From IMG/VR virus record IMGVR_UViG_3300045988_171102: a DNA stretch of 64,000 bases. One strand, written 5' to 3'. A program made the translations under genes and the position numbers. Source of the stretch: a virus. The notes below the pieces were generated by a model, which had not been told where the DNA came from, did no database searches, and was given only the letters and a program-made list of their open reading frames with translations. Positions 5,420-42,697 of the stretch are shown one piece after another. Every line of letters starts with the position of its first letter. Positions within the stretch are counted from its first letter, which is position 1.

Positions 5420-6447
5420 TCCTCGCCTTCGTAATTTTCGCCCCAGTCATCACTGTCGCTTGTTGTTTTAAATTCACTATTTGCCTTATCATTAGCTTTC
5501 TGCTTGTAAAGAGCTTCCTCAATAACTTCTTCTGAATAAGTATCTGTGTCAATTGTATCTTTGTCAGCACCATTGATAATCAGTTTACGAACAGTTGGAG
5601 CTTTCACTTTTTCCATCTCAATGCCAACACCCCAAGCATCATCAACTTCAACTTCTTCAACAGGTGTTTCGACAGAAAAATAACCTCCTACTTTAATCAT
5701 GGTATAAGGCTTAAGCATTTTCTTAAAAGTCTGAGCCATTTTGCTGTTCTGAACATACATTTCGATATCTTCAATAGAGTTATAATTAACTACTTTAGCC
5801 GACACAATAAATTCATTATCGTTTTCCTTATTTTTTTCAATACCCATAAAAATAATTTCCTGCTTAAACATATTTATAGGCTTAAATTTTTCATCGTCAA
5901 AATCAATAGGTTTCTGACACAGCGATACTTGATCAAAGTCAAAAGAAGTGTTGTGTTTGCCATTATATGTAGAAAACTTAATATCGCCTTTCACAAATAC
6001 ATTATCATTATCCTGAAGATGTTCGGAAATTTCCTTACAAGCATCAAAAGCAACAAGTGTCTTTTTATTATTCACAATCTTACCGTCATCATCAACAATT
6101 TTTTCAACTCCACAATGAACGCCAACAAGATTGTATTCTTCAGATGGAGCTTTATGTCTGTCTGCCCAAGCAACTTTCTGTGTATCACTTACACGCTTAC
6201 CATTAACAACCTCTGACTTGTTAAAATATACATAATCTTGCTGAGAACCAGTCTGCTGAACATAGGCAACTGAATCAGGCTGATACATTACGCCAAAATT
6301 AACTCTACGCCAACTCTTACCAGTGTTTGATGACTTACCTTCTTTATAAAATCCATCTTTCTCAACTCCAGTAACTTTACCCATTATCTGAAATTTACCT
6401 TTTGTCTGTCTTAATCCAAGTCCTTTATTACTCATTTGTTGTATCAA
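5410..6447 (-). CDS. putative ssDNA-binding protein
   Basis: Acidic C-terminal tail (DSDDWGENYEGEEWD) typical of SSBs. Position between the recombinase-like ATPase and small genes. No strong motif, so tentative. Confidence 0.4.
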   Translation of the reverse strand: MIQQMSNKGLGLRQTKGKFQIMGKVTGVEKDGFYKEGKSSNTGKSWRRVNFGVMYQPDSVAYVQQTGSQQDYVYFNKSEVVNGKRVSDTQKVAWADRHKAPSEEYNLVGVHCGVEKIVDDDGKIVNNKKTLVAFDACKEISEHLQDNDNVFVKGDIKFSTYNGKHNTSFDFDQVSLCQKPIDFDDEKFKPINMFKQEIIFMGIEKNKENDNEFIVSAKVVNYNSIEDIEMYVQNSKMAQTFKKMLKPYTMIKVGGYFSVETPVEEVEVDDAWGVGIEMEKVKAPTVRKLIINGADKDTIDTDTYSEEVIEEALYKQKANDKANSEFKTTSDSDDWGENYEGEEWD

Positions 6448-6728: not shown

Positions 6729-7043
6729 TTAAAATCCTTTCTCTATAATCTCTTTTTGCTGTTTATCATATGACTCAATATGTTTATTTGATTTTAAAAA
6801 CTTAATTGTATTAGCTACAGCTAAAGCAGGATTTTTACTTCCTTTAAGCTTCTTCAATACAATTGTAGAAATTGAGTATGCTCCAATCATAAGACCTTTT
6901 TTGTAAGCAGCATCATAAACATTTTTAACAGCTTCTTTAATTTTTTCATCAGGAAATGAATCAATTATTTCTTCAACTGTCATATCGTTTACTTCTTTTG
7001 AAATTATTTTCACCACCTTTCGATTTAAAGTCATAATAGACAT
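6729..7043 (-). CDS. hypothetical protein
   Basis: ORF in track with GGTGGTGA SD-like sequence upstream. Confidence 0.5.
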   Translation of the reverse strand: MSIMTLNRKVVKIISKEVNDMTVEEIIDSFPDEKIKEAVKNVYDAAYKKGLMIGAYSISTIVLKKLKGSKNPALAVANTIKFLKSNKHIESYDKQQKEIIEKGF

Positions 7044-7089: not shown

Positions 7090-7105
7090 TTACAAATGAC
7101 GGTCA
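7090..7105 (-). promoter_or_regulatory. copy a of the 16-nt motif TGACCGTCAYTTGTAA (read on the minus strand)
   Basis: Plus strand reads TTACAAATGACGGTCA. On the minus strand, TTGTAA is followed 17 nt later by TAAAAT, upstream of the 6729..7043 gene. Confidence 0.5.
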
Positions 7106-7239
7106 ATAGTGTTAAAAAAATAAAACACACTTCCACCTCTTTGGTTAATTACGCAATATCTGTTTTTATCTGCTCATTTTGCCACTATAAATGCAATTAT
7201 CAAAGGATAAAAACGGGAATCACAGTTTTAGCTGTAAAA

Positions 7240-9015: not shown

Positions 9016-9663
9016 TTATTCTTCAGTATCTACAGCCGCTACAAATTCACCATCTTTTAAAGTATAATAAACACCTGCTTTAATTTTATCTCCATCAACT
9101 CTTGTCATCTTTGCACCAACAAATTCCCATCCTTTTTTATTGCTAACATACCGCCATTCAGCACAGACGATATGAGAACCAATACAGCCTTTTGCCTTAC
9201 TTAGATACCCCCAAGCAACAGCCACCCCTGTTGTGTTCTCAACTGAGGACGCTCCTTTATAGCCTGTGGCTGAGGACGCTCCTTTATAGCCTGTAGCTGA
9301 GGACGCTCCGTAATCTCCTGTGGCATTCTGCATTGTGACGGTTTTGGATTTGGTAAAATCTATTGCAGCCTGAACAAGTCCAGCTATGCTTAATTTTGCA
9401 CCAATTTTAATCTTAGTTGATGCAATTTTTGAATCTCTATTATCAGAACCGGATGAAAATTCACCTGTCTGTTCAACTTCATGATATACACTTGTATTTG
9501 GTGAATAATAACCTAAACAATCTAAAGGGTATTCACATGCATGAAATCCTTCATTACAAACAACAGCTTTACTTGTTTCATATTCTTTGCCTTCTTTATA
9601 CTGAAAGCCTCTGCAAGTCATATCTTTATTAAAACCTTTGTAACTTTTAACTACTTTTGACAT
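9016..9663 (-). CDS. hypothetical protein with internal ATG[YD][KY]GASS repeats
   Basis: ORF in track. N-terminal KGFNKDMTCRGFQYKEGKEY...GFHAC block. Three 9-aa repeats. Confidence 0.55.
   Translation of the reverse strand: MSKVVKSYKGFNKDMTCRGFQYKEGKEYETSKAVVCNEGFHACEYPLDCLGYYSPNTSVYHEVEQTGEFSSGSDNRDSKIASTKIKIGAKLSIAGLVQAAIDFTKSKTVTMQNATGDYGASSATGYKGASSATGYKGASSVENTTGVAVAWGYLSKAKGCIGSHIVCAEWRYVSNKKGWEFVGAKMTRVDGDKIKAGVYYTLKDGEFVAAVDTEE
9243..9323. repeat. 3 x 27-bp tandem repeat inside the 9016..9663 CDS
   Basis: CTGAGGACGCTCCTTTATAGCCTGTGG occurs twice nearly identically. A third copy is diverged. Confidence 0.8.
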
Positions 9664-9962: not shown

Positions 9963-10099
9963 TGGACTCTTTCCTTTCTTTTATTTGGACGGCTTCAGTT
10001 CATTCTGATGAACAACCACAGACCGTTATGGTGACGCTTATCCGTCATGCGTCAAGGAGGTTACAAAATGAGTTTGTGCCGATTGCACTCACTTGTAAA

Positions 10100-10175
10100 T
10101 GGTGACACAGAAGAGATTTGAACTCTCACTTTACAGATTTTAAGTCTGCTGTCTCTGCCGTTGGACTACTGTGTC
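10100..10175 (-). tRNA. tRNA with anticodon UAA (Leu by anticodon) but a short variable loop; CCA encoded
   Basis: Hand-folded cloverleaf. Acceptor GACACAG/CTGTGTC; anticodon stem GCAGA/TCTGT with loop CTTAAAA; T arm GAGAG-TTCAAAT-CTCTT; A73; CCA. Confidence 0.65.
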
Positions 10176-10511: not shown

Positions 10512-11408
10512 TCAGACTTCCAAGCCAACACCATATTTTTCAACAAAATCATCAATTTCCTTTTGTTGAATATTAATATAGGCAGCCGTTATTTTTTGAC
10601 TGGAATGACCAAGAAATTCTGATGTAATTTGAAGTTCTTTGACATCCGTTGTATGATCTACAACATTTCGGGCAATTGTCTTTCGTAAGCTATGTGTTCC
10701 ATAATGTTTACAAAACATTTGTGGATTTTTACTATGCAGTTTTTTTGTTAATCTCTGAATGACTTTTCTCATTCCATCCACTGTATTTGGTTCATCTGGA
10801 GTGAAGCACTTAGGAAACAGCCAATCTGACATTTTTAATTTACAATTTCCATGAAGTTGATTATATTTTCCTAATTCACGGAAATAATATTGTAAAGCTG
10901 ATTTAGCAAAAGAGTTAATCTTCACATGAGCATATTTCTTAGTTTTTTGCTCATGTAAATTAATGTATTCCCCAACACTTATCCCATTAGAACTGGTTTG
11001 CAAAACATCTCCAACCTTTAAACTTACAATATCACCTGCTCTTCGAGCTGTATTTACACTCAATACTATATAAAGGTAATTTCTCAAACTGTTTATATAA
11101 TATTTTGAAGGTTTTAAAAGCTCTTCGAGCATGAGCTTTACTTCATTGGGCGTGAAAGCATCAGTGCTTTTATCAGTAATTTTCTTTGTAACTAAATAAT
11201 TATTGTCTACTTCAATACAATCAATTAAATTTTCGTTATCGTTAAAATATAATTCATCCTCATTGTCCATTTGTTCAAGATAACGATTTATTTCAACAAC
11301 ATTATCAAGATAACTTTTCCCGCTTATTTCAGTATTATCATTTGTAACAATGTTAATATCGGGAACATATTGCTCCTTAAATCCAATCAAAGCCAATTGC
11401 TGACTCAT
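10512..11408 (-). CDS. int: tyrosine recombinase / phage integrase
   Basis: Catalytic signature ARRAGD (R), HSLRKT (HxxR) and LGHSS...AAY (H...Y). Confidence 0.85.
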   Translation of the reverse strand: MSQQLALIGFKEQYVPDINIVTNDNTEISGKSYLDNVVEINRYLEQMDNEDELYFNDNENLIDCIEVDNNYLVTKKITDKSTDAFTPNEVKLMLEELLKPSKYYINSLRNYLYIVLSVNTARRAGDIVSLKVGDVLQTSSNGISVGEYINLHEQKTKKYAHVKINSFAKSALQYYFRELGKYNQLHGNCKLKMSDWLFPKCFTPDEPNTVDGMRKVIQRLTKKLHSKNPQMFCKHYGTHSLRKTIARNVVDHTTDVKELQITSEFLGHSSQKITAAYINIQQKEIDDFVEKYGVGLEV

Positions 11409-11452
11409 ATATTTTCACTCCTTATTATATGTTCCATTTCTTATTTTAAAAA

Positions 11453-11468
11453 TTACAAGTGACGGTCA
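11453..11468 (-). promoter_or_regulatory. copy b of the 16-nt motif TGACCGTCAYTTGTAA (read on the minus strand)
   Basis: Plus strand reads TTACAAGTGACGGTCA. Lies between a bidirectional terminator and the int start. Confidence 0.5.
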
Positions 11469-11478
11469 TTGATATGTA

Positions 11479-11530: not shown

Positions 11531-12436
11531 TCATAAGTTAAAGTATGTTCGCCATTGTTTATATCTGTTGATCATCTTTCCTTTATCAAAGTCATTTCTT
11601 GGTTCAGGAAATCCAAAACTTAATAAAACTTTTGTATCAACTTGTTTGGGTGTAACAGATAAAAATATAAAATTATCGTTAGCTTTATCATATTTGTAAC
11701 ATCGTTGATAAATGCCAGACCAACGAAACTGATAAGAATTAATACCACAATTTTTCCAAAGATTACGAATAAGAACTGTATCCAATTTTGGATATAGCCT
11801 AAATATTTCAGCTAACATATCCGGAACTGCAAATGCAATGTTTTCAAAATTGACGATATTATTATTAGTACCCAAATGTTTAACAGAACAATCTGCCTCT
11901 TTTGCAGTTACATTTGCCCCATTAAAGTATAATAAAGCAAATATCATAGTTAAATCCCGATGAATCTTACTTTTGAAATATTTACTCCAATCCTCAGATA
12001 TAATACTGTAGGTTGTCCATTTCAGTGTTGGAATAACAGTCGGTACAAATACATCAGCCTTAAAGTCAATTATCAATTTTGGAATTGGTCGTTTTAACAC
12101 TTTAAAATATTCCATAATTAATAATTTATTTCTTACAATATCTTCTGTATATTTTTCATCTTGTATCTTGGATAACACATCATATTCATTCCAACACCAT
12201 ATAGGGGATTTATCACAACATTCTTTGTCAGATATATCTTTCAATTTATATAGCATCCTATGAATAACATATGCTGTATCTAAGTATAAAGAATGATACT
12301 CCTTTGTTTTTGCTTGACAATTTAAAATATTCTCTAATACTTGAATTTTTCCTTTTTGATCAAATAATATTTCTTCAATAATTGATTGACCTTTACGGTC
12401 ATTATCACACATTCCCATTAACAAACAGCCTTTCAC
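11531..12436 (-). CDS. hypothetical protein (301 aa) between int and the MazF-like gene
   Basis: ORF in track; no recognisable motif. Confidence 0.5.
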   Translation of the reverse strand: MKGCLLMGMCDNDRKGQSIIEEILFDQKGKIQVLENILNCQAKTKEYHSLYLDTAYVIHRMLYKLKDISDKECCDKSPIWCWNEYDVLSKIQDEKYTEDIVRNKLLIMEYFKVLKRPIPKLIIDFKADVFVPTVIPTLKWTTYSIISEDWSKYFKSKIHRDLTMIFALLYFNGANVTAKEADCSVKHLGTNNNIVNFENIAFAVPDMLAEIFRLYPKLDTVLIRNLWKNCGINSYQFRWSGIYQRCYKYDKANDNFIFLSVTPKQVDTKVLLSFGFPEPRNDFDKGKMINRYKQWRTYFNL

Positions 12437-12526
12437 GATTATTAATACATATTATACCAATATGTAAGGCAACTTGTCAAATACAAAATGGAAAGGTAAA
12501 TCAATTATTTATCAAGCAATTATCTA

Positions 12527-12928
12527 TCACCTATGAAGATTGCTGTATAGATGTACAAAACAATTTAATCCCATCATGTTAATAGCACAAAGGCGAGCGT
12601 CTTTTAATTCACTCTCAGTCAGTTGACCAATCTTATATCCTAATTGATTTTGATTAATTGTAGTAATCTGTTCCCCTAAGATTATCGACTCACTTCTCAA
12701 ACCATTTATGTCATTTGGTTTTATTTTCATATGCGTAGGTAAATCTTTCTTATGTTTAGAAGTCAACGGCATAACCGTAACAATACCACTATAATAATTA
12801 CCGATATCGTTACTAACAACAACGACTGGTCTTAATCCTGTTTGCAGAGAGCCTTGACCGCTTAAATTTGCGAAATATACATCTCCGCACTTAATATTCT
12901 TTACACTAACATTTTCTGCGACTCTCAT
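12527..12928 (-). CDS. MazF/PemK-family endoribonuclease toxin
   Basis: GDVYFANL...GLRPVVVVSND...VTVMPLTS...SIILGEQITTINQNQL matches the PemK/MazF pattern. SD AGGAAGGAG upstream. Confidence 0.8.
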   Translation of the reverse strand: MRVAENVSVKNIKCGDVYFANLSGQGSLQTGLRPVVVVSNDIGNYYSGIVTVMPLTSKHKKDLPTHMKIKPNDINGLRSESIILGEQITTINQNQLGYKIGQLTESELKDARLCAINMMGLNCFVHLYSNLHR

Positions 12929-13136
12929 CGCTAATCTCCTTCCTTTTGTACTTATTTTGAATTTACATAAGTTTTAGTGAGTGGATAATACCCTCACCAT
13001 TCGGCAGCAAAATCTACCGTTATAATCCATTCACTAATTATCAAACTAAATCAATGAAGTTGCTACCGAAATAAATGACATTTGACCGTCATTTATTCGT
13101 CGCTTTTATTCTTCTATTGTTTATGCTCATATGATA

Positions 13137-16190: not shown

Positions 16191-16631
16191 TCACTTATAG
16201 AGAATTTCATAAAAATCTTCTGTATAGGTGCCGTCAGCCTTATCTTGCTCTTCGTACTTTTCAAGTGCCTTGACTGCATCTTCGTGAGTGTCAAAAGAGT
16301 CAATTAACTCTTTTGTTCCTGCGTAAGCAATCCAATATCTTGGCGGATTCTCACTAAGAATAATAACCAAGATTTGAGCATTCTTGTCACCGAACCAGTC
16401 TTCAAAATCTGCGGTAACATCATCATTGGCAATGACGGTCATACCGTACTCTTCCTCATCCATAAGTTCTTCATACACAACTTCTTCATTTTCATTGTAC
16501 TGGTCATTCTCTATATCGTCAGATGTATAAATAAAATCACTGTGAACACGGTGTGTGAAGTCTGTAAATCTGTAGATTTCGCATTCAACATATTGTCCTT
16601 TGTAATGTTCTTTAACTTCTTTGATTGTCAT
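16191..16631 (-). CDS. acidic hypothetical protein
   Basis: Start moved to the internal ATG (MTIKEVKEHY), which follows SD AAAGGAGAA. Confidence 0.5.
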   Translation of the reverse strand: MTIKEVKEHYKGQYVECEIYRFTDFTHRVHSDFIYTSDDIENDQYNENEEVVYEELMDEEEYGMTVIANDDVTADFEDWFGDKNAQILVIILSENPPRYWIAYAGTKELIDSFDTHEDAVKALEKYEEQDKADGTYTEDFYEILYK

Positions 16632-17301
16632 AATGTTTTCTCCTTTTTGTTGTTTCTTTGTTTTTTGCAATTAATAATAATTTATCAATGATTAAATTTT
16701 CAATCCAACGAGATAGTACCTTTTTTCCACTCTCCAAACTTTCAATTGTTTGCTGTCTCATTCCAAAAATTTCAGACATTTCTTCTTGTGTTAATTCCGC
16801 ACACAAGCGAGCTTCCTTTATCGTCATGCGTTTAGAAGGTTCAAAAATCTCATCAATAGATACAGGAAGATTAAATTTTAAAAGAGTTGAAACTTTATAC
16901 GCTGAGTCTAATAAAGGTATTTTCTTATGATGATAATAACAAAATGCAGTTGAATGAGAAATACCATATTTTTTCTCAACCTGCATATAAGTTTCGTCAA
17001 GTGCATCAAATGCCTGACTAAAAGCAAAATAAAACTTATGTTCAATATCTTTTTGAAATTGAATTCTTTCATCGGCACTTACAAATCTTCTGCCATGTAA
17101 TACCTCTAAAAGGACTACAGCCGTACTATAAGACATCTTCTTGTTATTGTTACTTTCTACGAAATAAAAACCCATTGTTGAAGGATAATATTGACTCCTT
17201 TTAGCTATTTCATAATAAGTTAAATACTGTTCTTTGATTTTTGTTTTACAATATTGAACAAAAATATCACTTACAGGCAATTTATTATTTTCTTTGTTCA
17301 T
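16612..17301 (-). CDS. XRE-family helix-turn-helix transcriptional regulator
   Basis: C-terminal ARLCAELTQEEMSEIFGMRQQTIESLESGKK matches the Cro/CI-type HTH pattern. Confidence 0.6.
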   Translation of the reverse strand: MNKENNKLPVSDIFVQYCKTKIKEQYLTYYEIAKRSQYYPSTMGFYFVESNNNKKMSYSTAVVLLEVLHGRRFVSADERIQFQKDIEHKFYFAFSQAFDALDETYMQVEKKYGISHSTAFCYYHHKKIPLLDSAYKVSTLLKFNLPVSIDEIFEPSKRMTIKEARLCAELTQEEMSEIFGMRQQTIESLESGKKVLSRWIENLIIDKLLLIAKNKETTKRRKHYDNQRS

Positions 17302-32201: not shown

Positions 32202-32351
32202 ATGTTTTAGATTTTAAACATCTTTTTTTCCTTTTTGTCTACGACAATTATATCACAAGTTGTTACATTTTTCAAGCGTTATTTTATACAAAGATATAAC
32301 AACTTGTTATATCGGTTTTATATAAACTGCACAATAACAGAAGGTGATACA

Positions 32352-32573
32352 ATGACAATAAATAACAATAGCAATAACAATAATTTACAAAATAAAACTT
32401 CAGAAGCTCGAAAAAAAGCAAGTGCAAAATATACTAAAAAAACATATAAAAACAAAACGGTATATATTAAATTAACTGATTTAGAAAAGATTGACGCATA
32501 CCTTCAAAGCGTGGGTATGAGCTGCACACAGTTTTTTTATAAAGCGTTAAGGGATAATGGTGTAGATGTATAA
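32352..32573 (+). CDS. ribbon-helix-helix (CopG/Arc-like) DNA-binding protein
   Basis: Start moved to MTINNN, which follows SD GAAGGTGA. KTVYIKLTDLEKIDAYLQSVGMSCTQFFYKALRD fits the strand-helix-helix pattern. Confidence 0.45.
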   Translation: MTINNNSNNNNLQNKTSEARKKASAKYTKKTYKNKTVYIKLTDLEKIDAYLQSVGMSCTQFFYKALRDNGVDV

Positions 32574-32606
32574 ATATTATTGTTTATGGCAGGCAGGAAG
32601 ATAGGC

Positions 32607-32631
32607 AAGAAAAAAAGCACAAAAGTGCTTT
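32607..32631 (-). terminator. intrinsic terminator oriented for leftward transcription
   Basis: The AAAGCAC-AAAA-GTGCTTT hairpin has its U-run (T7) only on the minus strand. Confidence 0.45.
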
Positions 32632-34364
32632 AACAAATTAAAGTGTTATAAAAAATATAAGTATTTATTTCGTTGAAGTGCATTTATATATACTTATAAA
32701 TAATATAACTGTATAATCAATGAATGCACGAAGTCTTTTAATACTTTAATGTACTAAAGTGTTATAATAAATATAACTGTATTTTCTCCCGCTCCCACGA
32801 ACTTATAAAACAGCTCTTCAAGCTCTTTTCTTCTTTTCTAACTGTCCGCTTTTTGATGTTTTGTGGACAATTAACAAGTTTTTTAATGCCGATGAAGTAA
32901 GATAACGCAAGCTGCTAAAACAAATAAGAAACAATTTTTTTCAAATTTTAAGAATTAAAATAATCAAAAAACCTCCGATATTATCTATCTTTTTTTTGAT
33001 TTTCTTAAAGTTTAAAGTATAATGCAAAAGCAAAAAAATACAATAATTTATAATTCAAATTTCATAACGCTAACGCTTTATGCCGTACACTAAACGGCTA
33101 TATATAGGGGGGTAGTTTACATTCCCTAAACGATTTTCATTTCCAATAAAGGGCATAGTACACTCATCCAAATATTCGCCACCAAAAATCCAATTATGAA
33201 TTTCCCCACCTCCCCTATCTCTAAAATCCCCTATTTTTTACTCTTATATTTTTGACCACTTTTTTTCAACCAATTTAAAAATTATTAATGCTTTATAAAT
33301 TCCTTAAATACCGCATATTCAAGCCATTTTTTACTTATTAAACCTACACAACATTATTTTCATATTTAACCCCTTTAAACTTCCTTAAAACCTCATTGCC
33401 AAGCCATTTTCACGAACTTAACATAGAATTAATAAAAAAACGCAATTTTACAAATTATAGTATCCCCAATAATACAATTAATATATTCTTTAGGTTTTAA
33501 GCCATTTTTTAAATAATTTACGCTTTAAATAATTTCATAATCTTAATAGATTCAATATTCAAGTTCATTCCAATTCATTTTCTTAAAATACCGTATATCT
33601 AAATGCAAAAAAATACTTTATTTTTTTCAACTGCTATTTCTGTAACCATATACAACTTTTAACTTATTACTCTTATTTCCCATTATTGCTTAATAATCAT
33701 ATTAAAAAACAATTTCAATTCTTAGTTTAACCACTCATTTTTGTATGAAGTGGTCTTTTTATTTCTTAAAGATCTAATTAAACAACCACACTAACGCTAC
33801 AGTAAAATTACAAAAATTATTATGTCAGACAACAAATTGAAAATAAGAGACGAGTAAACTCGGATGTTATTTTCTGTTTGTTGTCGTAAACAGTTGTTGA
33901 TTGTTTTACCTTCAGGTGAAACAAGAAATGACTGTTTACTTTTATTGGCTTGGCAACAATTATGTGATAAGAAATTTATTTGTTATAATTCACAATAATA
34001 AGTATCTCTTATGCTCTTCATAGTCTCTATACGCTCTCAGATTGCAATGAACTCTCTTTTATGTAAAAAATACCCTAATACACCAATAACTTTGCTTACA
34101 ATCAATTTTTAAGCCTTTTAGAGCACATTCTGTTTTATTTAATTCTTTAATAATTACTTTTAAAAAATACAACATATCTCTATTTTGCTCTATTTTGCCC
34201 TGTATTCGATTTTTTGGTTTAGCAATGTAATTATACTATTTTTGTATTTTAGTTTAATACAAGCCAATTTTCGCAAGAATAGAATAAGTTTTGAACGCAA
34301 ATGCTTATTACATATTGATTTAATATTAATTTAATAATATTTTTTACTTTTTTTACTGAAACTA

Positions 34365-34392
34365 TTGCAATTTTAAAATTATCTGTTATAAT
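34365..34392 (+). promoter_or_regulatory. strong sigma70-like promoter with extended -10, firing rightward
   Basis: TTGCAA, 16-nt spacer ending in TGT, then TATAAT. Confidence 0.55.
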
Positions 34393-34410
34393 ATATTTTA
34401 GACATATCAG

Positions 34411-34426
34411 TTACAAGTGACGGTTA
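34411..34426 (-). promoter_or_regulatory. copy c of the 16-nt motif (TAACCGTCACTTGTAA on the minus strand)
   Basis: Plus strand reads TTACAAGTGACGGTTA. On the minus strand, TTGTAA is followed after 17 nt by TATTAT. Inverted relative to copy d. Confidence 0.5.
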
Positions 34427-34451
34427 AAGATTATTTGTATTTACATGTTCA

Positions 34452-34557
34452 GGATTAAATAAGCGTTAGCGTTTTAATCCGTTTAAGGTTTAATTATCGC
34501 TAAGCGTTAGCTTAGTGAGAAATAAACCGCAATCAGCCCCCGTAGCGTTAGCTACGG
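34452..34557 (+). repeat. three consecutive stem-loops sharing the apex AGCGTTAGC (GC-GUUA-GC)
   Basis: GGATTAAA(taAGCGTTAGCgt)TTTAATCC at 34452-34480; GCTAAGC-GTTA-GCTTAGT at 34499-34516; CCGTAGC-GTTA-GCTACGG at 34540-34557. Confidence 0.75.
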
Positions 34558-34621
34558 CACAAAAGAATGAATATATCTAACTAATAAGTTTTCTTATTGG
34601 TTTGTTTCTTTTTACTTATGT

Positions 34622-34637
34622 TCACCGTCATTTGTAA
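34622..34637 (+). promoter_or_regulatory. copy d of the 16-nt motif (TCACCGTCATTTGTAA), pointing at the rightward genes
   Basis: Read directly from the plus strand. TTGTAA is followed after 17 nt by TATTTA. Confidence 0.5.
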
Positions 34638-34731
34638 TTTATGTTTTATTTGACTATTTATTTTATTCTTTTGTTTCTTATTTCTTATTTTCTTAATTTT
34701 ATTTTGAATTTAAAGAAAGAACCAAAGAAAG

Positions 34732-34769
34732 GATTTACTTATTACCCCTAAAGGGGTAATAAGTAAATC
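34732..34769. repeat. perfect 18-bp inverted repeat (GATTTACTTATTACCCCT aa AGGGGTAATAAGTAAATC)
   Basis: Read directly. Flanked by TTTCTTAT repeats and an extremely AT-rich tract. About 200 bp upstream of the Rep-like gene. Confidence 0.85.
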
Positions 34770-34970
34770 TAATAATATTAAATTTCTTATATTTATTTCT
34801 TATATTATTTATATTATTAAATATATATTATATTATAAATTTATATTATAAATAACAAAAAGGTGTGAGTAAAAAACGAACACCGTATTAATGAACTTTT
34901 ATTTATAAAAGGTTGTGTGCAAAAAATAGTCGAAAAGTGGTTACAATTTTGTTACAAAAAGGATGATTGA

Positions 34971-35990
34971 ATGGTGTATACATATAAAAATGAGTTTGTC
35001 AATTTTAAGTTACTTGTAAATCAATCAGTTACTTCTAACATGACAATACCAAAAAACATTATTGATGAATTATTCAAAAATAAAAATGAAAAAGTTTGGT
35101 TTGCGTATTATGTTATGAGAGGGCTTGGGCGGTTAATTATGTATTCACAAGCAATACATAGTTGGAAGCAAGATAAATTTCAGGCAAGCAATCAAAAAAA
35201 TGGTAATAAGATTATTGCCGATTATTTTAATAACATAAGACTTATTGAAATCAAACGCAGCTTCACTGACTTGACCAAAGACATATTTGAGAATTTTTCA
35301 TTTTATGTAATTTTTGAAACTTTATTTCCTTTTGTAGATAGAAAGTTTTATAAGTCACTTGAGAAAATCTTTTTTGATGGATTAGAATATTTCATTAAAC
35401 AAGGTAAGATTGTACGAATTTGTAATCGTAGAATTGGTTATCCGTATTATCGGACTATGTATTGGAACATCACTGTTGATATAAAGCCAATTTACATTAC
35501 AGATGAGTTTGCAGATGAATTAACAGTTGAGACACTTAACTTACCTAATAATATTTTAAACACTTCTTACTCATTTAAATCTGAATGGTTAAGTCAATGT
35601 TTTAAGATTACCGAAGCGAATCCAATGAAGGCATTAAGGATGTCGAGAGTTTTGTGTTTTATAATAAATAAAAGAATTAAGCGATATCATAAAAAAATTG
35701 CATATCTATCATTTAGGACATTGAGCAACCTTACAGGACTTTGTGAACGAAGTATTAAAAATTATGTAAAAGAATTACGAGATAATAATTTACTTTATTA
35801 TGACAACTATATTTTAATTGCGAATCCTCTGAAGCAGGTGTGTAAGTATAGCAAAAATTTTTATTGCCTGCCTGAAGATAAAGACTATTTAGAGAAAATA
35901 GTTGAAAAATATAGAATTAAAAAAATTGAAGCAGAACAAAATACAAAAGCGAAACAACCAATAAATGAAATGATAGAAAATTTTGAATGA
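34971..35990 (+). CDS. putative replication initiator / DNA-binding protein with C-terminal winged-HTH
   Basis: ISFRTLSNLTGLCERSIKNYVKELRDNNLL is HTH-like. Sits next to the iteron/palindrome/AT-rich region. Confidence 0.4.
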   Translation: MVYTYKNEFVNFKLLVNQSVTSNMTIPKNIIDELFKNKNEKVWFAYYVMRGLGRLIMYSQAIHSWKQDKFQASNQKNGNKIIADYFNNIRLIEIKRSFTDLTKDIFENFSFYVIFETLFPFVDRKFYKSLEKIFFDGLEYFIKQGKIVRICNRRIGYPYYRTMYWNITVDIKPIYITDEFADELTVETLNLPNNILNTSYSFKSEWLSQCFKITEANPMKALRMSRVLCFIINKRIKRYHKKIAYLSFRTLSNLTGLCERSIKNYVKELRDNNLLYYDNYILIANPLKQVCKYSKNFYCLPEDKDYLEKIVEKYRIKKIEAEQNTKAKQPINEMIENFE

Positions 35991-37082: not shown

Positions 37083-39959
37083 ATGGCTCAAAGCAAAGCT
37101 GTAAATATACCGTTATTGGACGGTAAAGATGTGTATATTGCAAATCATTATATTAACAATAGTTTGAACGGATATACACTTAGAGACAAATTTGGTGACT
37201 TAAATATAAAGAAATTTGTCGCCACAATGGATTATAGTTTAGACTTAATTAAATTGAATGATGTTTACAAAGAAGTGTATCGAAATAGAAATTTTTATGA
37301 ATATGTTGGCAGAAATAAAAAATATACAAGGCATGTTATAAATGTCACTTTTAAATACAGCAATAAACTTTACAATCGGGCTGGTTCAGGTTTGTATATT
37401 AAATTCGGTTACTCCCCTACCGAAGTTATATTAGAAAATAATGCTTGTATTAAAGATGGTACTTTAATAGCTATTCGAGTATTGCCAGATGGTAAAGAAA
37501 AAAATATTACAGAAGATTATCTTGTGAAGTCTCCCCTTTCACAAGAAATCTTAGGTGAATATTTTTTTTATGATAAAGAATTATCTGTTTATAGAGCTAA
37601 AGATAATATTGAGACATTAACCTCAATTTCTGACATTAGAACTGATTTATATGAAAATGGTTTTGTTTGTGACGGAATTAAGTATGTACGATTTAAACGC
37701 AGTAGTGGTAGCAGTCGTGTAGGTAAATGCCTATTTATTGACGAAAAATTATACAAAAAGATGCATAAATGGGAAATGTGTGGATTAAATGTAAAGAATG
37801 GTGTTAAATGTGATTTGGCGAGTCTTGAGCCTTATATAGCATTAACTCTTTCTTCTATCATAGACACAATAACCATTGAACCAAATGAAATTCTTGTCAT
37901 CCCCGATTATGAAAGCAAATTTACGACAACTTGCGTTGCTACAGAACTTGATAAGGATAATAGACTTATTTCGTCAGCAAAACAAGTTGATATGTCAAAT
38001 AGTATTTGGGATGGACAGTCCTTATTAGATGTTAGTAAATTTGAGGACTACAAAAATTATGGTATGTTGTTATTGCGTACACGTTTTTTTAAATCTGCTT
38101 GTTTTAATACTAATATTCAGCAATGGTTTACTGATAACGGAATCACTGACATATCGCAATTAAATGGATATACTCAAGCCACAAAATTGTCTGATATTAA
38201 ATTAATTACTACTCCAAGCAGTATTAAATATTTAAAATTTGGTTCTTTAGAAGATTGGCTATGGACAATTGAACCACAATTTGGTGTTGTAAAACATGAA
38301 AAGCCTACTCATTATTTTGATGGTAGAATGGTTCAAACACATTATCAATTGCTTAATACTTTACAATTGACGAAAGATGAAGTAGAGAAATTTATTCAAC
38401 CTACAATTGACTATATTATGAAATTGAAAACAGACAGTGCTGTATTTAGGCATCACATTAAATATTCAATTCCTGAATATACAAATGCTGAATCTCAACA
38501 ATTGGCGAATAAAAATGATATTGTATATTACTTGCTTGGACTAAATAATAAATTTAGCCAAACCAAAATGTACAAAGACTTTTGTAATGAAACTGTTAAG
38601 GCATTTGTTAAAAACTGTCGCAAGGGACATATCTTCGTACATGGTAATTATTCAACACTATTTGGCAACCCTATCGAAATGCTACAAAGTTGCATTGGAC
38701 GATTTAATGGAGAACCTAAAATTAAAGCAGGCACAGTACATTGTACGATGTTTAATAATGGTGATAAGTTAATAGGAAGTCGTTCTCCTCATGTTACAAT
38801 GGGAAATATTTTATGTTGTCAGAATGTAATATATGAGGACATTAATAAATATTTTAATTTAAGTAATGAGATAGTATGTGTCAATAGTATTCGTGATAAT
38901 TTATTAGAGAGATTAAGTGGTTCAGATTTTGATTCTGACACTGTTTTGTTGACAGATAATAAAATATTATATCAAGCTGCAATTCGTAATTATGATAATT
39001 TTCTTGTACCGACAAAATTAGTGTCAAGTAAAAAATGTGAGCGTAGATATACGGCACGAGATAAAGCTGAACTTGACATTAAGACAGGAACAAATAAAAT
39101 TGGAGAAATCATTAATTTATCTCAAGAATTAAATTCTAAGTTATGGGAATTAATTTATAACGGATATGATATACAATCAAATGAGGTACAATCACTTTAT
39201 GCTGATATTGCACAATTAGATGTGATGAGCAATTTGGAGATTGATTCAGCTAAAAGAGAAAATCCGGCAAACAATTCTATGGAGCTTAAATTATTAAAAG
39301 CTAAATATGCTGTATATGATAACAAAGGTAGATATGTCCGACCACTATTTTTTAAATATTTGGATAAGTATAAGGGGTATGACAATAATCGAAAACATTA
39401 TCGGCTTTATAATACTACGATGGATTATGTCGAACTTGCTTTAAATAAAATACCTCGTGTAAGAAATAATGCTCCCCTTTTAAATTTATCAGACATTTTT
39501 AAATCATCTAATGCAATTGATGGACAAGTGTATTATGAACAAGTTGAGCGTATATTGTCCGCCATTCAAGATACTAAAGACGAAATTGGTCATTTGTGGT
39601 CAAAGTATAAATCTAAAACTGGGAATGTTAATAAAGGTGAAGATGCTTTCTCTTATGAGCAGTGTTTAAAGATGACAGAAGAAGCAAAAGAAGATTGCGT
39701 AGAATATATTAATTCACTTAAAATTTCTAAAAAAACAATGCGTTATCTTTTATCTTTAATCGAAAAACCCACACATAAAAATTATTCAGCATTATTTTTA
39801 TCAGCAATATTCACTTACCACAATATAAATTTTGATGAATTAGTTGCCGATAGTCAAGAAAATGTATTTCAAATTAAAGAATGTCCGATAGAATCAGAAC
39901 AGTATGACATTAAGTTATATGACTTTAATTACCGATATGTAAGTAATGTGAATACATAA
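37083..39959 (+). CDS. YonO / cellular RdRP-like single-subunit two-barrel RNA polymerase (putative)
   Basis: RSPHVTMGNILCCQNV ... LSGSDFDSDTVLLTDN resembles the catalytic block of RNAi-type RdRPs and their phage homologues (DxDxD metal loop). Confidence 0.65.
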   Translation: MAQSKAVNIPLLDGKDVYIANHYINNSLNGYTLRDKFGDLNIKKFVATMDYSLDLIKLNDVYKEVYRNRNFYEYVGRNKKYTRHVINVTFKYSNKLYNRAGSGLYIKFGYSPTEVILENNACIKDGTLIAIRVLPDGKEKNITEDYLVKSPLSQEILGEYFFYDKELSVYRAKDNIETLTSISDIRTDLYENGFVCDGIKYVRFKRSSGSSRVGKCLFIDEKLYKKMHKWEMCGLNVKNGVKCDLASLEPYIALTLSSIIDTITIEPNEILVIPDYESKFTTTCVATELDKDNRLISSAKQVDMSNSIWDGQSLLDVSKFEDYKNYGMLLLRTRFFKSACFNTNIQQWFTDNGITDISQLNGYTQATKLSDIKLITTPSSIKYLKFGSLEDWLWTIEPQFGVVKHEKPTHYFDGRMVQTHYQLLNTLQLTKDEVEKFIQPTIDYIMKLKTDSAVFRHHIKYSIPEYTNAESQQLANKNDIVYYLLGLNNKFSQTKMYKDFCNETVKAFVKNCRKGHIFVHGNYSTLFGNPIEMLQSCIGRFNGEPKIKAGTVHCTMFNNGDKLIGSRSPHVTMGNILCCQNVIYEDINKYFNLSNEIVCVNSIRDNLLERLSGSDFDSDTVLLTDNKILYQAAIRNYDNFLVPTKLVSSKKCERRYTARDKAELDIKTGTNKIGEIINLSQELNSKLWELIYNGYDIQSNEVQSLYADIAQLDVMSNLEIDSAKRENPANNSMELKLLKAKYAVYDNKGRYVRPLFFKYLDKYKGYDNNRKHYRLYNTTMDYVELALNKIPRVRNNAPLLNLSDIFKSSNAIDGQVYYEQVERILSAIQDTKDEIGHLWSKYKSKTGNVNKGEDAFSYEQCLKMTEEAKEDCVEYINSLKISKKTMRYLLSLIEKPTHKNYSALFLSAIFTYHNINFDELVADSQENVFQIKECPIESEQYDIKLYDFNYRYVSNVNT

Positions 39960-40071
39960 AAATAGCTCATTTTTTGCAAAAAACGGCAAAAAACTAAGTT
40001 TTTTAAATTGAAATCTTCAAAAAAGCCAGTATTTAAGCCATTTTTTATAATAAATAAAAGATGTATATGGT

Positions 40072-40102
40072 AAAGAGAGTGAACCTCCCCATCACTCTCT
40101 TT
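40072..40102. other. 11-bp stem hairpin without a U-tract, in the RNAP-downstream intergenic region
   Basis: AAAGAGAGTGA-ACCTCCCCA-TCACTCTCTTT. Confidence 0.6.
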
Positions 40103-40131
40103 AAATATAATTTAGAAAGAGTGATTTATTT

Positions 40132-40332
40132 TTGTTTCCTATTACAAAGGAAGAAAGTATAAAAATCAGAAAGAAATATCCTGAAGCAGAAATCAGAAGA
40201 ACTGTTAAGCAGAAAAGTAAGAGGCATAAATATTTTTGTCCAGAGATAAAAAAATATCTTGTATTAATCAAAGATACGAATGAGATAGCTTGTTCAATCT
40301 ATACACGAAAGAGAAAATACTTTAATGCTTAA
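40132..40332 (+). CDS. small basic hypothetical protein
   Basis: ORF in track (TTG start); overlaps the next gene start. Confidence 0.45.
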   Translation: MFPITKEESIKIRKKYPEAEIRRTVKQKSKRHKYFCPEIKKYLVLIKDTNEIACSIYTRKRKYFNA

Positions 40333-41704: not shown

Positions 41705-42697
41705 ATGCCTGTAAGAAGTAAAAAGATATGTCTACTTGACTATGATAAACTAAGCAAAGTTAATTCTGAAACGCTTAAATTATACAAGAAATATGAAGCT
41801 GATATGGCTATTCGAGAATTGTCCAAAAAATCTATTGCAGTGTATTACAATGACCTTGTTAATTGGTGGATGTACATTTATGACTATCAGGATAATCGCT
41901 CAGTCAAAGAAATTAACGAAGATGACATTATTGAATTTATTTACTTCTGTAAGCAGAATGGTAATAACACAGAAAGAATAAAGCATAGAATGGCTTCAAT
42001 TTCAGCTTTTTATAAATTTTTAAGAAAAAGAAAATTAATTGTAGAAAATCCAATGGATTATGTTGACCGTCCAAAAAAAGGTCAAGCTGTTGTTAAGCAG
42101 ACTTTTTTAACTGTTGAACAAGTAGATACAATGAGAAAAGTCTTAAAGCAGAAGATTGAGGATAGTAAAAATAAATCCTTGCGTTGTAAACATGACTCGA
42201 TTATGTTGAGGGTGTATGCAGAATTTTCGCTTATTACAATGGCAAGAATAAATGCTATTGCTAATTTGCGTTGGGAACAAATTGATTTTGCTGAATGTGT
42301 CGCAAACGATGTTATTGAAAAATTAGGCAAAATTGTAAGTTTGTACTTTGATGAGAGCACTAAAGAGTATTTGATTGAATTACAGAATTTCAGAAAAGAA
42401 AACAGAATTAACGATAATGGATGGGTGTTTTATTCTATGGCATCGCAGACAGGCAATCACTTATCAACAACAGCCTTATCTGATATGTGCAAAGAAATTG
42501 GACAAATGATTAGTGTTCCTACCCTACATCCACACGATTTTCGTCATAGTGGTGCTACTTTATACAAGAATGCAGGAATGTCATTAGAAGAAGTTTCTCA
42601 CTGTCTGCATCATGAAAGTACAGAAGTTACCCGAAAATTTTACATCAAAGAAAATGACACTGAATTAAGAGCGAAAAAGAATCAGTGTCATATTTAA
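41705..42697 (+). CDS. tyrosine recombinase (XerC/D- or integrase-like), second copy in the window
   Basis: MARINAIANLRW (R), HPHDFRHSGAT (HxxR) and LHHES...RKFY (H...Y). SAM-like N-terminal domain. Confidence 0.8.
   Translation: MPVRSKKICLLDYDKLSKVNSETLKLYKKYEADMAIRELSKKSIAVYYNDLVNWWMYIYDYQDNRSVKEINEDDIIEFIYFCKQNGNNTERIKHRMASISAFYKFLRKRKLIVENPMDYVDRPKKGQAVVKQTFLTVEQVDTMRKVLKQKIEDSKNKSLRCKHDSIMLRVYAEFSLITMARINAIANLRWEQIDFAECVANDVIEKLGKIVSLYFDESTKEYLIELQNFRKENRINDNGWVFYSMASQTGNHLSTTALSDMCKEIGQMISVPTLHPHDFRHSGATLYKNAGMSLEEVSHCLHHESTEVTRKFYIKENDTELRAKKNQCHI

Follow-up and report, generated by a model that had tools for sequence, protein, structure and literature searches.

Short sequences that recur between the genes of a virus raise the question of what reads them and which genes they serve. 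The window considered here, meaning the whole stretch of 64,000 nucleotides of viral DNA, carries a 14-base sequence at five intergenic places, mostly at the -35 of the promoters of replication, recombinase, and phage RNA-polymerase genes. A sequence-only reading had already drawn attention to it as a 16-nt motif and had proposed a regulon of operator-plus-promoter sites, or of stoperator-like sites, for one phage regulator. We conclude that it is a real and conserved five-site cis-regulatory motif at the early promoters of a common gut prophage.

The window has a G+C content of ~30%, and ~14% of it is without coding. It belongs to a prophage of ~100 kb that encodes an RNA polymerase of the YonO type together with a late module of the type of Bacillus phage SPβ, and contigs near-identical to it are 100-101 kb long. 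Leftward genes extend to 32141 and rightward genes run from 32235, among them that of the polymerase:

37083-39959, plus strand: YonO-type single-chain RNA polymerase gene, 958 aa, with a DFDSD motif at 615-619, downstream of the site numbered 4 below.

Homologues of this 958-aa protein in its large family carry PF05183, and the genes that follow the RNA polymerase in close relatives, which are syntenic with the window, encode the Pfam domains YonJ_CC, YonG_N, YonD_N, and YonB. Since the polymerase is of the YonO type and Yon-type domains lie downstream of it in relatives, the phage is best placed as a distant low-G+C relative of the SPβ group. The kinship is very distant at the sequence level, tblastn comparison with SPβ proteins giving E=3e-4 for YonO and E=4e-12 for YonF. 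More than 3000 homologues of the polymerase are found in public assemblies, mostly on contigs of 100-130 kb. In the public assembly collection, 2080 indexed blocks contain the window's MazF-like protein, and human-gut contigs of 200-490 kb account for many of them; thus the phage is a common prophage. Megablast against deposited known phages returned no close relative, a scan of the GTDB representative genomes with the polymerase found no relative, and an Rfam scan of the window gave two tRNAs and no other match.

Three further observations concern the genome at large. A second tyrosine recombinase, full-length and XerC/D-like (41705-42697, 330 aa, with an N-terminal SAM-like domain), lies inside the late block between the YonJ-like exonuclease and YonG-like genes, a position kept in the related loci L008 and L012. 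The gene at 9016-9663, which belongs to the DUF7666 family in relatives and has a faint collagen-like match, contains three exact-register 27-nt tandem repeats (9243-9324). Finally, there is an insertion hot spot at 10099-10104 and 9985-10030, the variants of which carry either an extra 74-nt tRNA after tRNA-Leu or 1.65 kb of inserted DNA that encodes a TnpB/Cas12f-like protein (OrfB_IS605 in L159).

How many sites are there? The window has two exact matches to TGACCGTCAYTTGTAA, which are minus-strand copies at 7090-7105 and 11453-11468, where 100 shuffles give a chance expectation of 0.00. Pattern scans bear out the coordinates and strands of the four copies that had been described as full. 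All four do recur, but only these two are exact, the others differing at the second base (TAACCGTCACTTGTAA at 34411-34426 on the minus strand and TCACCGTCATTTGTAA at 34622-34637 on the plus strand). A position weight matrix that was built from the sites themselves scores five sites at 22.2-27.5 bits and everything else at ≤14 bits, and the highest score in 30 Markov-chain nulls was 19.2 bits. Two partial copies had also been listed. That at 13083 is a genuine fifth site, because the matrix scan sets it apart together with the other four, whereas that at 10085-10100 is unsupported, since it scores <10 bits and coincides with the tRNA-Leu 3' end and terminator. The local polymorphism at the latter place is an extra tRNA or a TnpB-like insertion, with no motif at its borders. 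Weaker matches at 16426, 32062, and 47698 fall in coding sequence with scores within the null range, and an ACCGTCA between the portal gene and the next gene in L008 belongs to a terminator hairpin and is no site. All five sites are intergenic (p ~6e-5 given the non-coding share of the window), and a 101-kb sister contig carries at least 4 exact copies. A literature search for the 9-mer returned primers only and nothing relevant, and a GTDB scan with the 18-mer of site 5 gave chance-level matches only. The sites and the genes that adjoin them are as follows.

Site 1, 7090-7107, minus strand: ATTGACCGTCATTTGTAA; TTGTAA (7095-7090), a 17-nt spacer, and TAAAAT (7072-7067).
Small tyrosine recombinase gene, 10512-11408, minus strand: 298 aa; the proposed binder, whose gene always adjoins a copy.
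Site 2, 11453-11470, minus strand: AATGACCGTCACTTGTAA; ~44-45 nt before the ATG (11408) of the small tyrosine recombinase gene.
MazF/PemK-like toxin gene (12527-12928) and 301-aa gene (11531-12436), together 11531-12928, minus strand: bracketed by sites 2 and 5.
Site 5, 13081-13098, plus strand: TTTGACCGTCATTTATTC; inverted with respect to the MazF/PemK-like gene, in its leader.
Site 3, 34411-34428, minus strand: TTTAACCGTCACTTGTAA; a leftward TTGTAA, 17 nt, and TATTAT (34393-34388), leading into ORF-free DNA.
Site 4, 34620-34637, plus strand: GTTCACCGTCATTTGTAA, then 17 nt and a poor -10, TATTTA.

What is conserved within the motif is asymmetric. Its invariant part is ACCGTCAYTT(G/A)T(A/T), and natural variants leave ACCGTCAYTT and the GTAA that follows it (ATTC at site 5) unchanged. 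The first two bases of the 16-mer are by comparison free, occurring as TG, TA, TC, TT, AG, and CG. The left half of the supposed palindrome is accordingly TGAC, TAAC, TCAC, TTAC, AGAC, or CGAC, its second base taking all four values. Each copy had been said to contain the palindrome TGACnGTCA. It is present in two of the four full copies and absent from the other two, and because the variants change the left half while they keep ACCGTCAYTT, we regard the palindrome as incidental, its role as the recognised unit as unsupported, and the conserved unit as asymmetric. Site 5 is invariant in >20 natural variants, including ones in which both flanks have been replaced, and site 1 is kept together with its upstream flank before a different gene (L023; contig 170155).

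The sites stand in a close but uneven relation to promoters. At site 1 the promoter-like hexamers are followed by a ribosome-binding site and an ATG at 7043, behind which an operon runs from 7043 to 1008 with genes for a 104-aa, a 99-aa, and a phrog_2367 protein, a Sak4-like protein, a DnaB helicase, and a primase. At site 2 the sole good -10 is TATAAT (11429-11424), 23 nt past TTGTAA, and therefore the motif lies just upstream of a weak -35; between TTGTAA and TATAAT is a box, ATGGAACATA. Site 3 faces two ways, as it also occupies +12 to +29 of a strong rightward promoter, TTGCAA (34365-34370), 16 nt, TGtTATAAT (34387-34392). Site 4 stands at the head of the rightward arm, in which the gene of an HTH_36 protein (34971-35990) and two small genes precede that of the YonO-like polymerase. 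Site 5 lies at ~+26 to +43 of the consensus promoter TTGACA (13159-13154), 17 nt, TATCAT (13136-13131) that drives the MazF/PemK-like gene. The hexamer TTGTAA is invariant at four sites and lacking at site 5. From the end of the motif to the start codon there are 47 nt at site 1, 45 nt at site 2, and 41 nt in the variant L023. At sites 1, 3, and 4 the core is centered near -41 of the inferred start, the classical position of a class II activator.

Three of the sites had been credited with a -10 hexamer at exactly 17 nt. TAAAAT (site 1) and TATTAT (site 3) pass the standard test, but TATTTA (site 4) fails it because the final T is missing. For two of five sites to have a good -10 at exactly 17 nt, p is ~0.02-0.03; promoter-like matches as such are not enriched in the AT-rich DNA of the window. 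Measured against the σA spacing of 16-18 nt, sites 1 and 3 are good and site 4 is poor, and there is no -10 at that distance at site 2. The motif had been described as always pointing in the direction of transcription. Sites 1, 2, and 4 clearly do so; site 5 is inverted in the MazF leader and site 3 is ambiguous.

Other sequence elements accompany these promoters. The box TATGGAAYAT, which is no σA -10, is found 15-17 nt past TTGTAA both in the recombinase promoter (11424-11440) and in two further promoter variants (L023 at ~7945; L085 and L049), once as a tandem duplicate (L085 and L049). Another repeat, (T/C)AAGCCATTTTT(T)A, is found on the plus strand at 33321, 33401, 33499, and 40035 of the window, at 6302 and 6478 of L008, and at 454 and 529 of L012. 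Three of its copies in the window are in an ORF-free region and one (40035) is in the gap that separates the YonO-like polymerase gene from the late genes, the place at which SPβ has its one YonO start. Because this repeat is common to relatives that lack the 16-mer, it is a candidate polymerase promoter or iteron. The ORF-free stretch itself (32573-34970, 2.4 kb) contains islands conserved in L008, among them the adjacent hairpins at 33828-33885 and 33886-33939. Three hairpins at 34446-34560 each show AGCGTTAGC in the loop region, with the same 9-mer, reversed, at ~33065. The stretch has no Rfam match, and it may serve as an origin, for packaging, or as a non-coding RNA. An AT-rich tandem-repeat stretch at ~34800-34850 is where at least seven independent assemblies (IMG/VR, ENA) stop, because of either a repeat that assembles poorly or a genome end. 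At 32250-32312, between divergent promoter-like sites and before an RHH-like gene, two 9-bp palindromes, ACAASTTGT, are set in a 23-nt inverted repeat. They are probably the operator of a different regulator, and similar arrays of the palindrome GGACAAnTTGTCC are found in L145 (3048-3460) and L146.

The motif persists where neighboring DNA has diverged. One related lineage, represented by L008, L009, and L144, shares 84% identity with the window in the RNA polymerase and 78% in the recombinase. In this lineage the core is kept at all four positions examined, with flanks that are ~80% identical or unalignable, and the copies are conserved in position. L144 has the identical 16-mer upstream of its recombinase gene and the identical 18-mer in its MazF leader. 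The divergent positions beside the early operon read TGACCGTCATTTATTT and TCACCGTCACTTGTAG: the counterpart of site 3 in L008 is aaTGACCGTCATTTATTT, where the facing rightward promoter is also kept, and that of site 4 in L008 and L009, in the same place, is ttcACCGTCACTTGTAG.

More distant relatives keep the arrangement and replace the sequence. L145 and L146 have recombinases 44-52% identical to that of the window and maintain the gene order MazF, ~295-aa gene, recombinase, but the window motif is absent from these loci. Another sequence takes its place both before the recombinase gene and in the MazF leader, the two copies being mutually inverted; it is TGTAAAAAGCGA in L145 and ATAGCCAAAGGCGGTTT in L146. 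An IMG/VR scan for the motif of the L146 type gave chance matches only. In L132, L134, and L012 a homologous recombinase gene heads the early operon without the MazF and 301-aa neighbors, and a lineage-specific repeat lies 18-50 nt upstream of it with an inverted copy 61-919 nt farther upstream. Altogether, in six lineages the recombinase gene is preceded at 18-75 nt by a lineage-specific sequence of 12-19 nt, of which a second, inverted copy lies 61 nt to 1.6 kb farther upstream. Because this gene moves or loses its MazF neighbors and yet keeps an adjoining repeat, it is the sole constant neighbor of the sites. The link between site and recombinase therefore extends over six lineages with six different site sequences.

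The most likely candidate for the binder is the 298-aa tyrosine recombinase. Its catalytic Arg, Lys, His-x-x-Arg, His, and Tyr are kept in all ten family members aligned. In a structural model only residues 80-294, the catalytic domain, fold confidently; the model matches XerH, Cre, and XerA, and the 50 best PDB matches listed do not include MrpR. We detected no sequence similarity between this recombinase and MrpR (YopR), the tyrosine-recombinase-fold regulator of SPβ. BLAST of YopR against both recombinases and every reading frame of the window likewise found none, nor was any other SPβ regulator matched by BLAST in the window. Kinship with MrpR was also sought for the recombinase and for its 301-aa neighbor by BLASTP, PDB phmmer/hmmsearch, and hhalign, with negative results.

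The two proteins nominated by the sequence-only reading are poor candidates, because they are poorly or not conserved in the lineage that keeps the motif. For the XRE protein (16612-17301), tblastn (E≤1e-4) finds no homologue in the loci L144, L008, and L009, although L144 is in synteny with the window over the interval where the XRE gene lies and its lineage keeps the motif at four positions. The RHH protein (32352-32573) is matched in these loci at 51% identity over its C-terminal 33 residues only, and therefore its DNA-reading N-terminal strand is not conserved. Nor does the 301-aa protein recommend itself. The three-gene order MazF, ~295-301-aa gene, recombinase is conserved in L144, L145, and L146, and the 301-aa gene is absent beside the sites in L132 and L134. 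No family was detected for the protein, and its AlphaFold model (pLDDT 41) is unusable. As regards the MazF/PemK-like gene, no recognisable antitoxin gene lies upstream of it (its 208-nt leader has no ORF of ≥27 aa), and the conserved ~295-aa gene that follows it might be its partner. SPβ-type phages interact with host MazEF.

The known system that most resembles this locus is that of SPβ itself. MrpR, the master repressor of this prophage, which has a tyrosine-recombinase fold and has lost catalytic function, binds the 15-bp SPBRE at about ten SPβ promoter regions, including one upstream of yonP-yonO (PMC10516654). The SPBRE that we recovered from NC_001884 is ACAAATACAAAWAATATGTATA. In six promoter regions examined, 7 of 7 copies are co-oriented with the downstream gene, and each is placed either 6 nt before the -35 or in the stretch from promoter to ribosome-binding site. 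Both phages, which belong to the same broad group, thus have a YonO-type polymerase and a Yon-type late module, a repeat of ~15 bp in intergenic promoter regions that is mostly co-oriented and close to the -35 or in the gap between promoter and gene, one copy before the operon that holds the phage RNA polymerase, and a linked gene of the tyrosine-recombinase family. They differ in that the sequences are unrelated (ACAAATACAAAWAATATGTATA in SPβ and ACCGTCAYTTGTAA here, the window motif having no copy in the 95 kb of SPβ examined), in that there are about ten sites in SPβ and five here, and in that the recombinase here is intact, no MrpR/YopR homologue is detectable in the window, and binding is predicted only. 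The arrangement is therefore analogous, and sequence and protein are not homologous.

Likeness to stoperators is more limited. Those of Cluster A mycobacteriophages such as L5 and TipsytheTRex are also asymmetric sites, of ~13 bp and read by one repressor, that occupy an early promoter and short gaps between genes (PMC9283540, PMC6550527), and they too have lineage-specific sequence variants that track the divergence of the repressor. However, they number >20 genome-wide and obey a strict orientation rule (PMC9283540), whereas there are five sites here and none in the late block. Two of the five are inverted with respect to their transcript, and a strict stoperator-like orientation is not supported. 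In Cluster A the repressor is monomeric and has a helix-turn-helix domain (PMC9283540, PMC6550527).

We propose that the five sites are a lineage-specific operator set for one phage regulator, analogous to SPBRE and MrpR, and put its chances at about even. The evidence for operators is recurrence beyond chance, a spacing of 41-47 nt from the start codon, a core conserved amid diverged flanks, the other shared sequences that stand in its place in more distant relatives, and the precedent of SPβ. The operator-plus-promoter regulon first suggested is in this sense the best-supported reading, as the sites are intergenic, conserved, and joined to a -35-like hexamer; its palindrome, its XRE and RHH regulators, and its strict orientation are not upheld. 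Against operators weigh the two of five sites only that have a convincing -10 at the right distance and the two, sites 3 and 5, that break a single orientation rule. That a protein binds here, with which sign it regulates, and which protein it is, we infer. A putative lineage-specific, phage-encoded DNA-binding protein would occupy all five sites and coordinate the replication operon (site 1), the recombinase gene (site 2), and the rightward polymerase operon (site 4). Because ACCGTCAYTT runs into or abuts the -35 at sites 1, 2, and 4, the bound protein would there exclude or contact the host σA polymerase, and at sites 3 and 5, just downstream of strong promoters, it may act as a roadblock. 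The sequence evidence fits repression and activation alike, but repression in the prophage state seems most likely, replication and the phage RNA polymerase being genes that a lysogeny repressor should silence. The recombinase may act on these sites as MrpR (YopR) acts on SPBRE, in which case site 2 would serve autoregulation; that it is catalytically intact, and MrpR not, counts against such a role.

An intact enzyme could also use the sites as its substrates. On this reading they are recombination targets of the small tyrosine recombinase, inversion toggling the units between them as in an inverton of the fimS/FimB type, which we consider improbable. There is indeed a resemblance to fimS and FimB/FimE, where a small recombinase gene lies beside short inverted repeats that bracket DNA with the promoter outside or inside. 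Sites 2 and 5 flank, as inverted repeats, a segment of 1.6 kb with the MazF-like and 301-aa genes, the MazF promoter being outside it, and sites 3 and 4 flank in the same way a segment of 195 bp before the early operon. Analogous inverted pairs exist in L145, L146, L132, L134, and L012. All catalytic residues are kept, and the one domain of the recombinase that folds in the model resembles small invertases. Nonetheless, unlike fimS, the locus has no inverted form in 39 assemblies (the segment 11469-13080 is flipped in 0 of 23 independent assemblies and the segment 34429-34619 in 0 of 16), counts that reflect the majority form only, such that a rare inversion could escape. No recombinase-sized inverted arms around a 6-8-bp spacer are conserved in the variants, and within each pair the two sites disagree at one or two bases of the core. 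Large deletions would also be possible between five sites of mixed orientation. Moreover, the sites coincide with -35 hexamers, extra copies lie at unrelated promoters 4 kb and 23 kb away, and inversion leaves the start-codon spacing and the fusion to the -35 unexplained. The broader proposal that an intact recombinase with lineage-specific sites is either the master repressor of replication and phage-polymerase genes, an enzyme-competent counterpart of MrpR, or the invertase of the MazF cassette and of a 195-bp switch strikes us as doubtful.

The remaining explanations keep the motif at promoters and change what reads it. It is unlikely, in our estimation, to be a positive promoter element, that is, an activator site of the phage or the extended -35 of a phage-encoded or redirected sigma factor, by which one temporal class of genes would be turned on upon infection or induction. 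The position of the core near -41 at three sites would suit an activator, and the constancy of TTGTAA at four sites is unlike ordinary, variable -35 elements. The poor -10 at sites 2 and 4 is often seen in activator-dependent promoters, and the related phage L134 encodes a Sigma70_r2 protein. Yet no sigma-factor gene was found among the window proteins scanned, and site 5 is the most strictly conserved while lacking TTGTAA. Because it is inverted and downstream of a consensus σA promoter, site 5 suits a roadblock and not an activator. A host transcription factor that couples the prophage early genes to a host signal is less probable still. A short GC-containing core in AT-rich promoters is typical of host regulator boxes, and the candidate phage binder is so far inferred only, but the relatives put unrelated sequences at the same positions, and these replacements point to phage-specific specificities. 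To our knowledge the motif is also unlike the Firmicutes LexA, CodY, CcpA, Rex, CtsR, Fur, and Spo0A boxes. We think it very improbable that the motif is the promoter of the phage's own YonO-type RNA polymerase. The phage does encode such an enzyme, phage polymerases use long conserved promoters, and the 2017 study of YonO gave no promoter sequence that it recognises (PMC5467207). However, one copy precedes the polymerase gene itself, and the genes behind the sites are of the early type (replication, recombinase) and not late. YonO of SPβ initiates at one start only, before yonK, which heads the late operon (PMC5467207), and the equivalent gap here, 39960-40325, has no copy of the motif and contains the other repeat, AAGCCATTTTTTA.

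This phage is widespread. The five sites define a putative regulon that spans replication genes, the phage RNA polymerase, and a toxin module, and they offer a direct experimental handle on its lysogeny control. Were the recombinase an invertase, DNA inversion, instead of or alongside a classical repressor, would set the prophage state. Regulators or switches of the recombinase family, so far known from MrpR of SPβ, may be general in phages that encode YonO.
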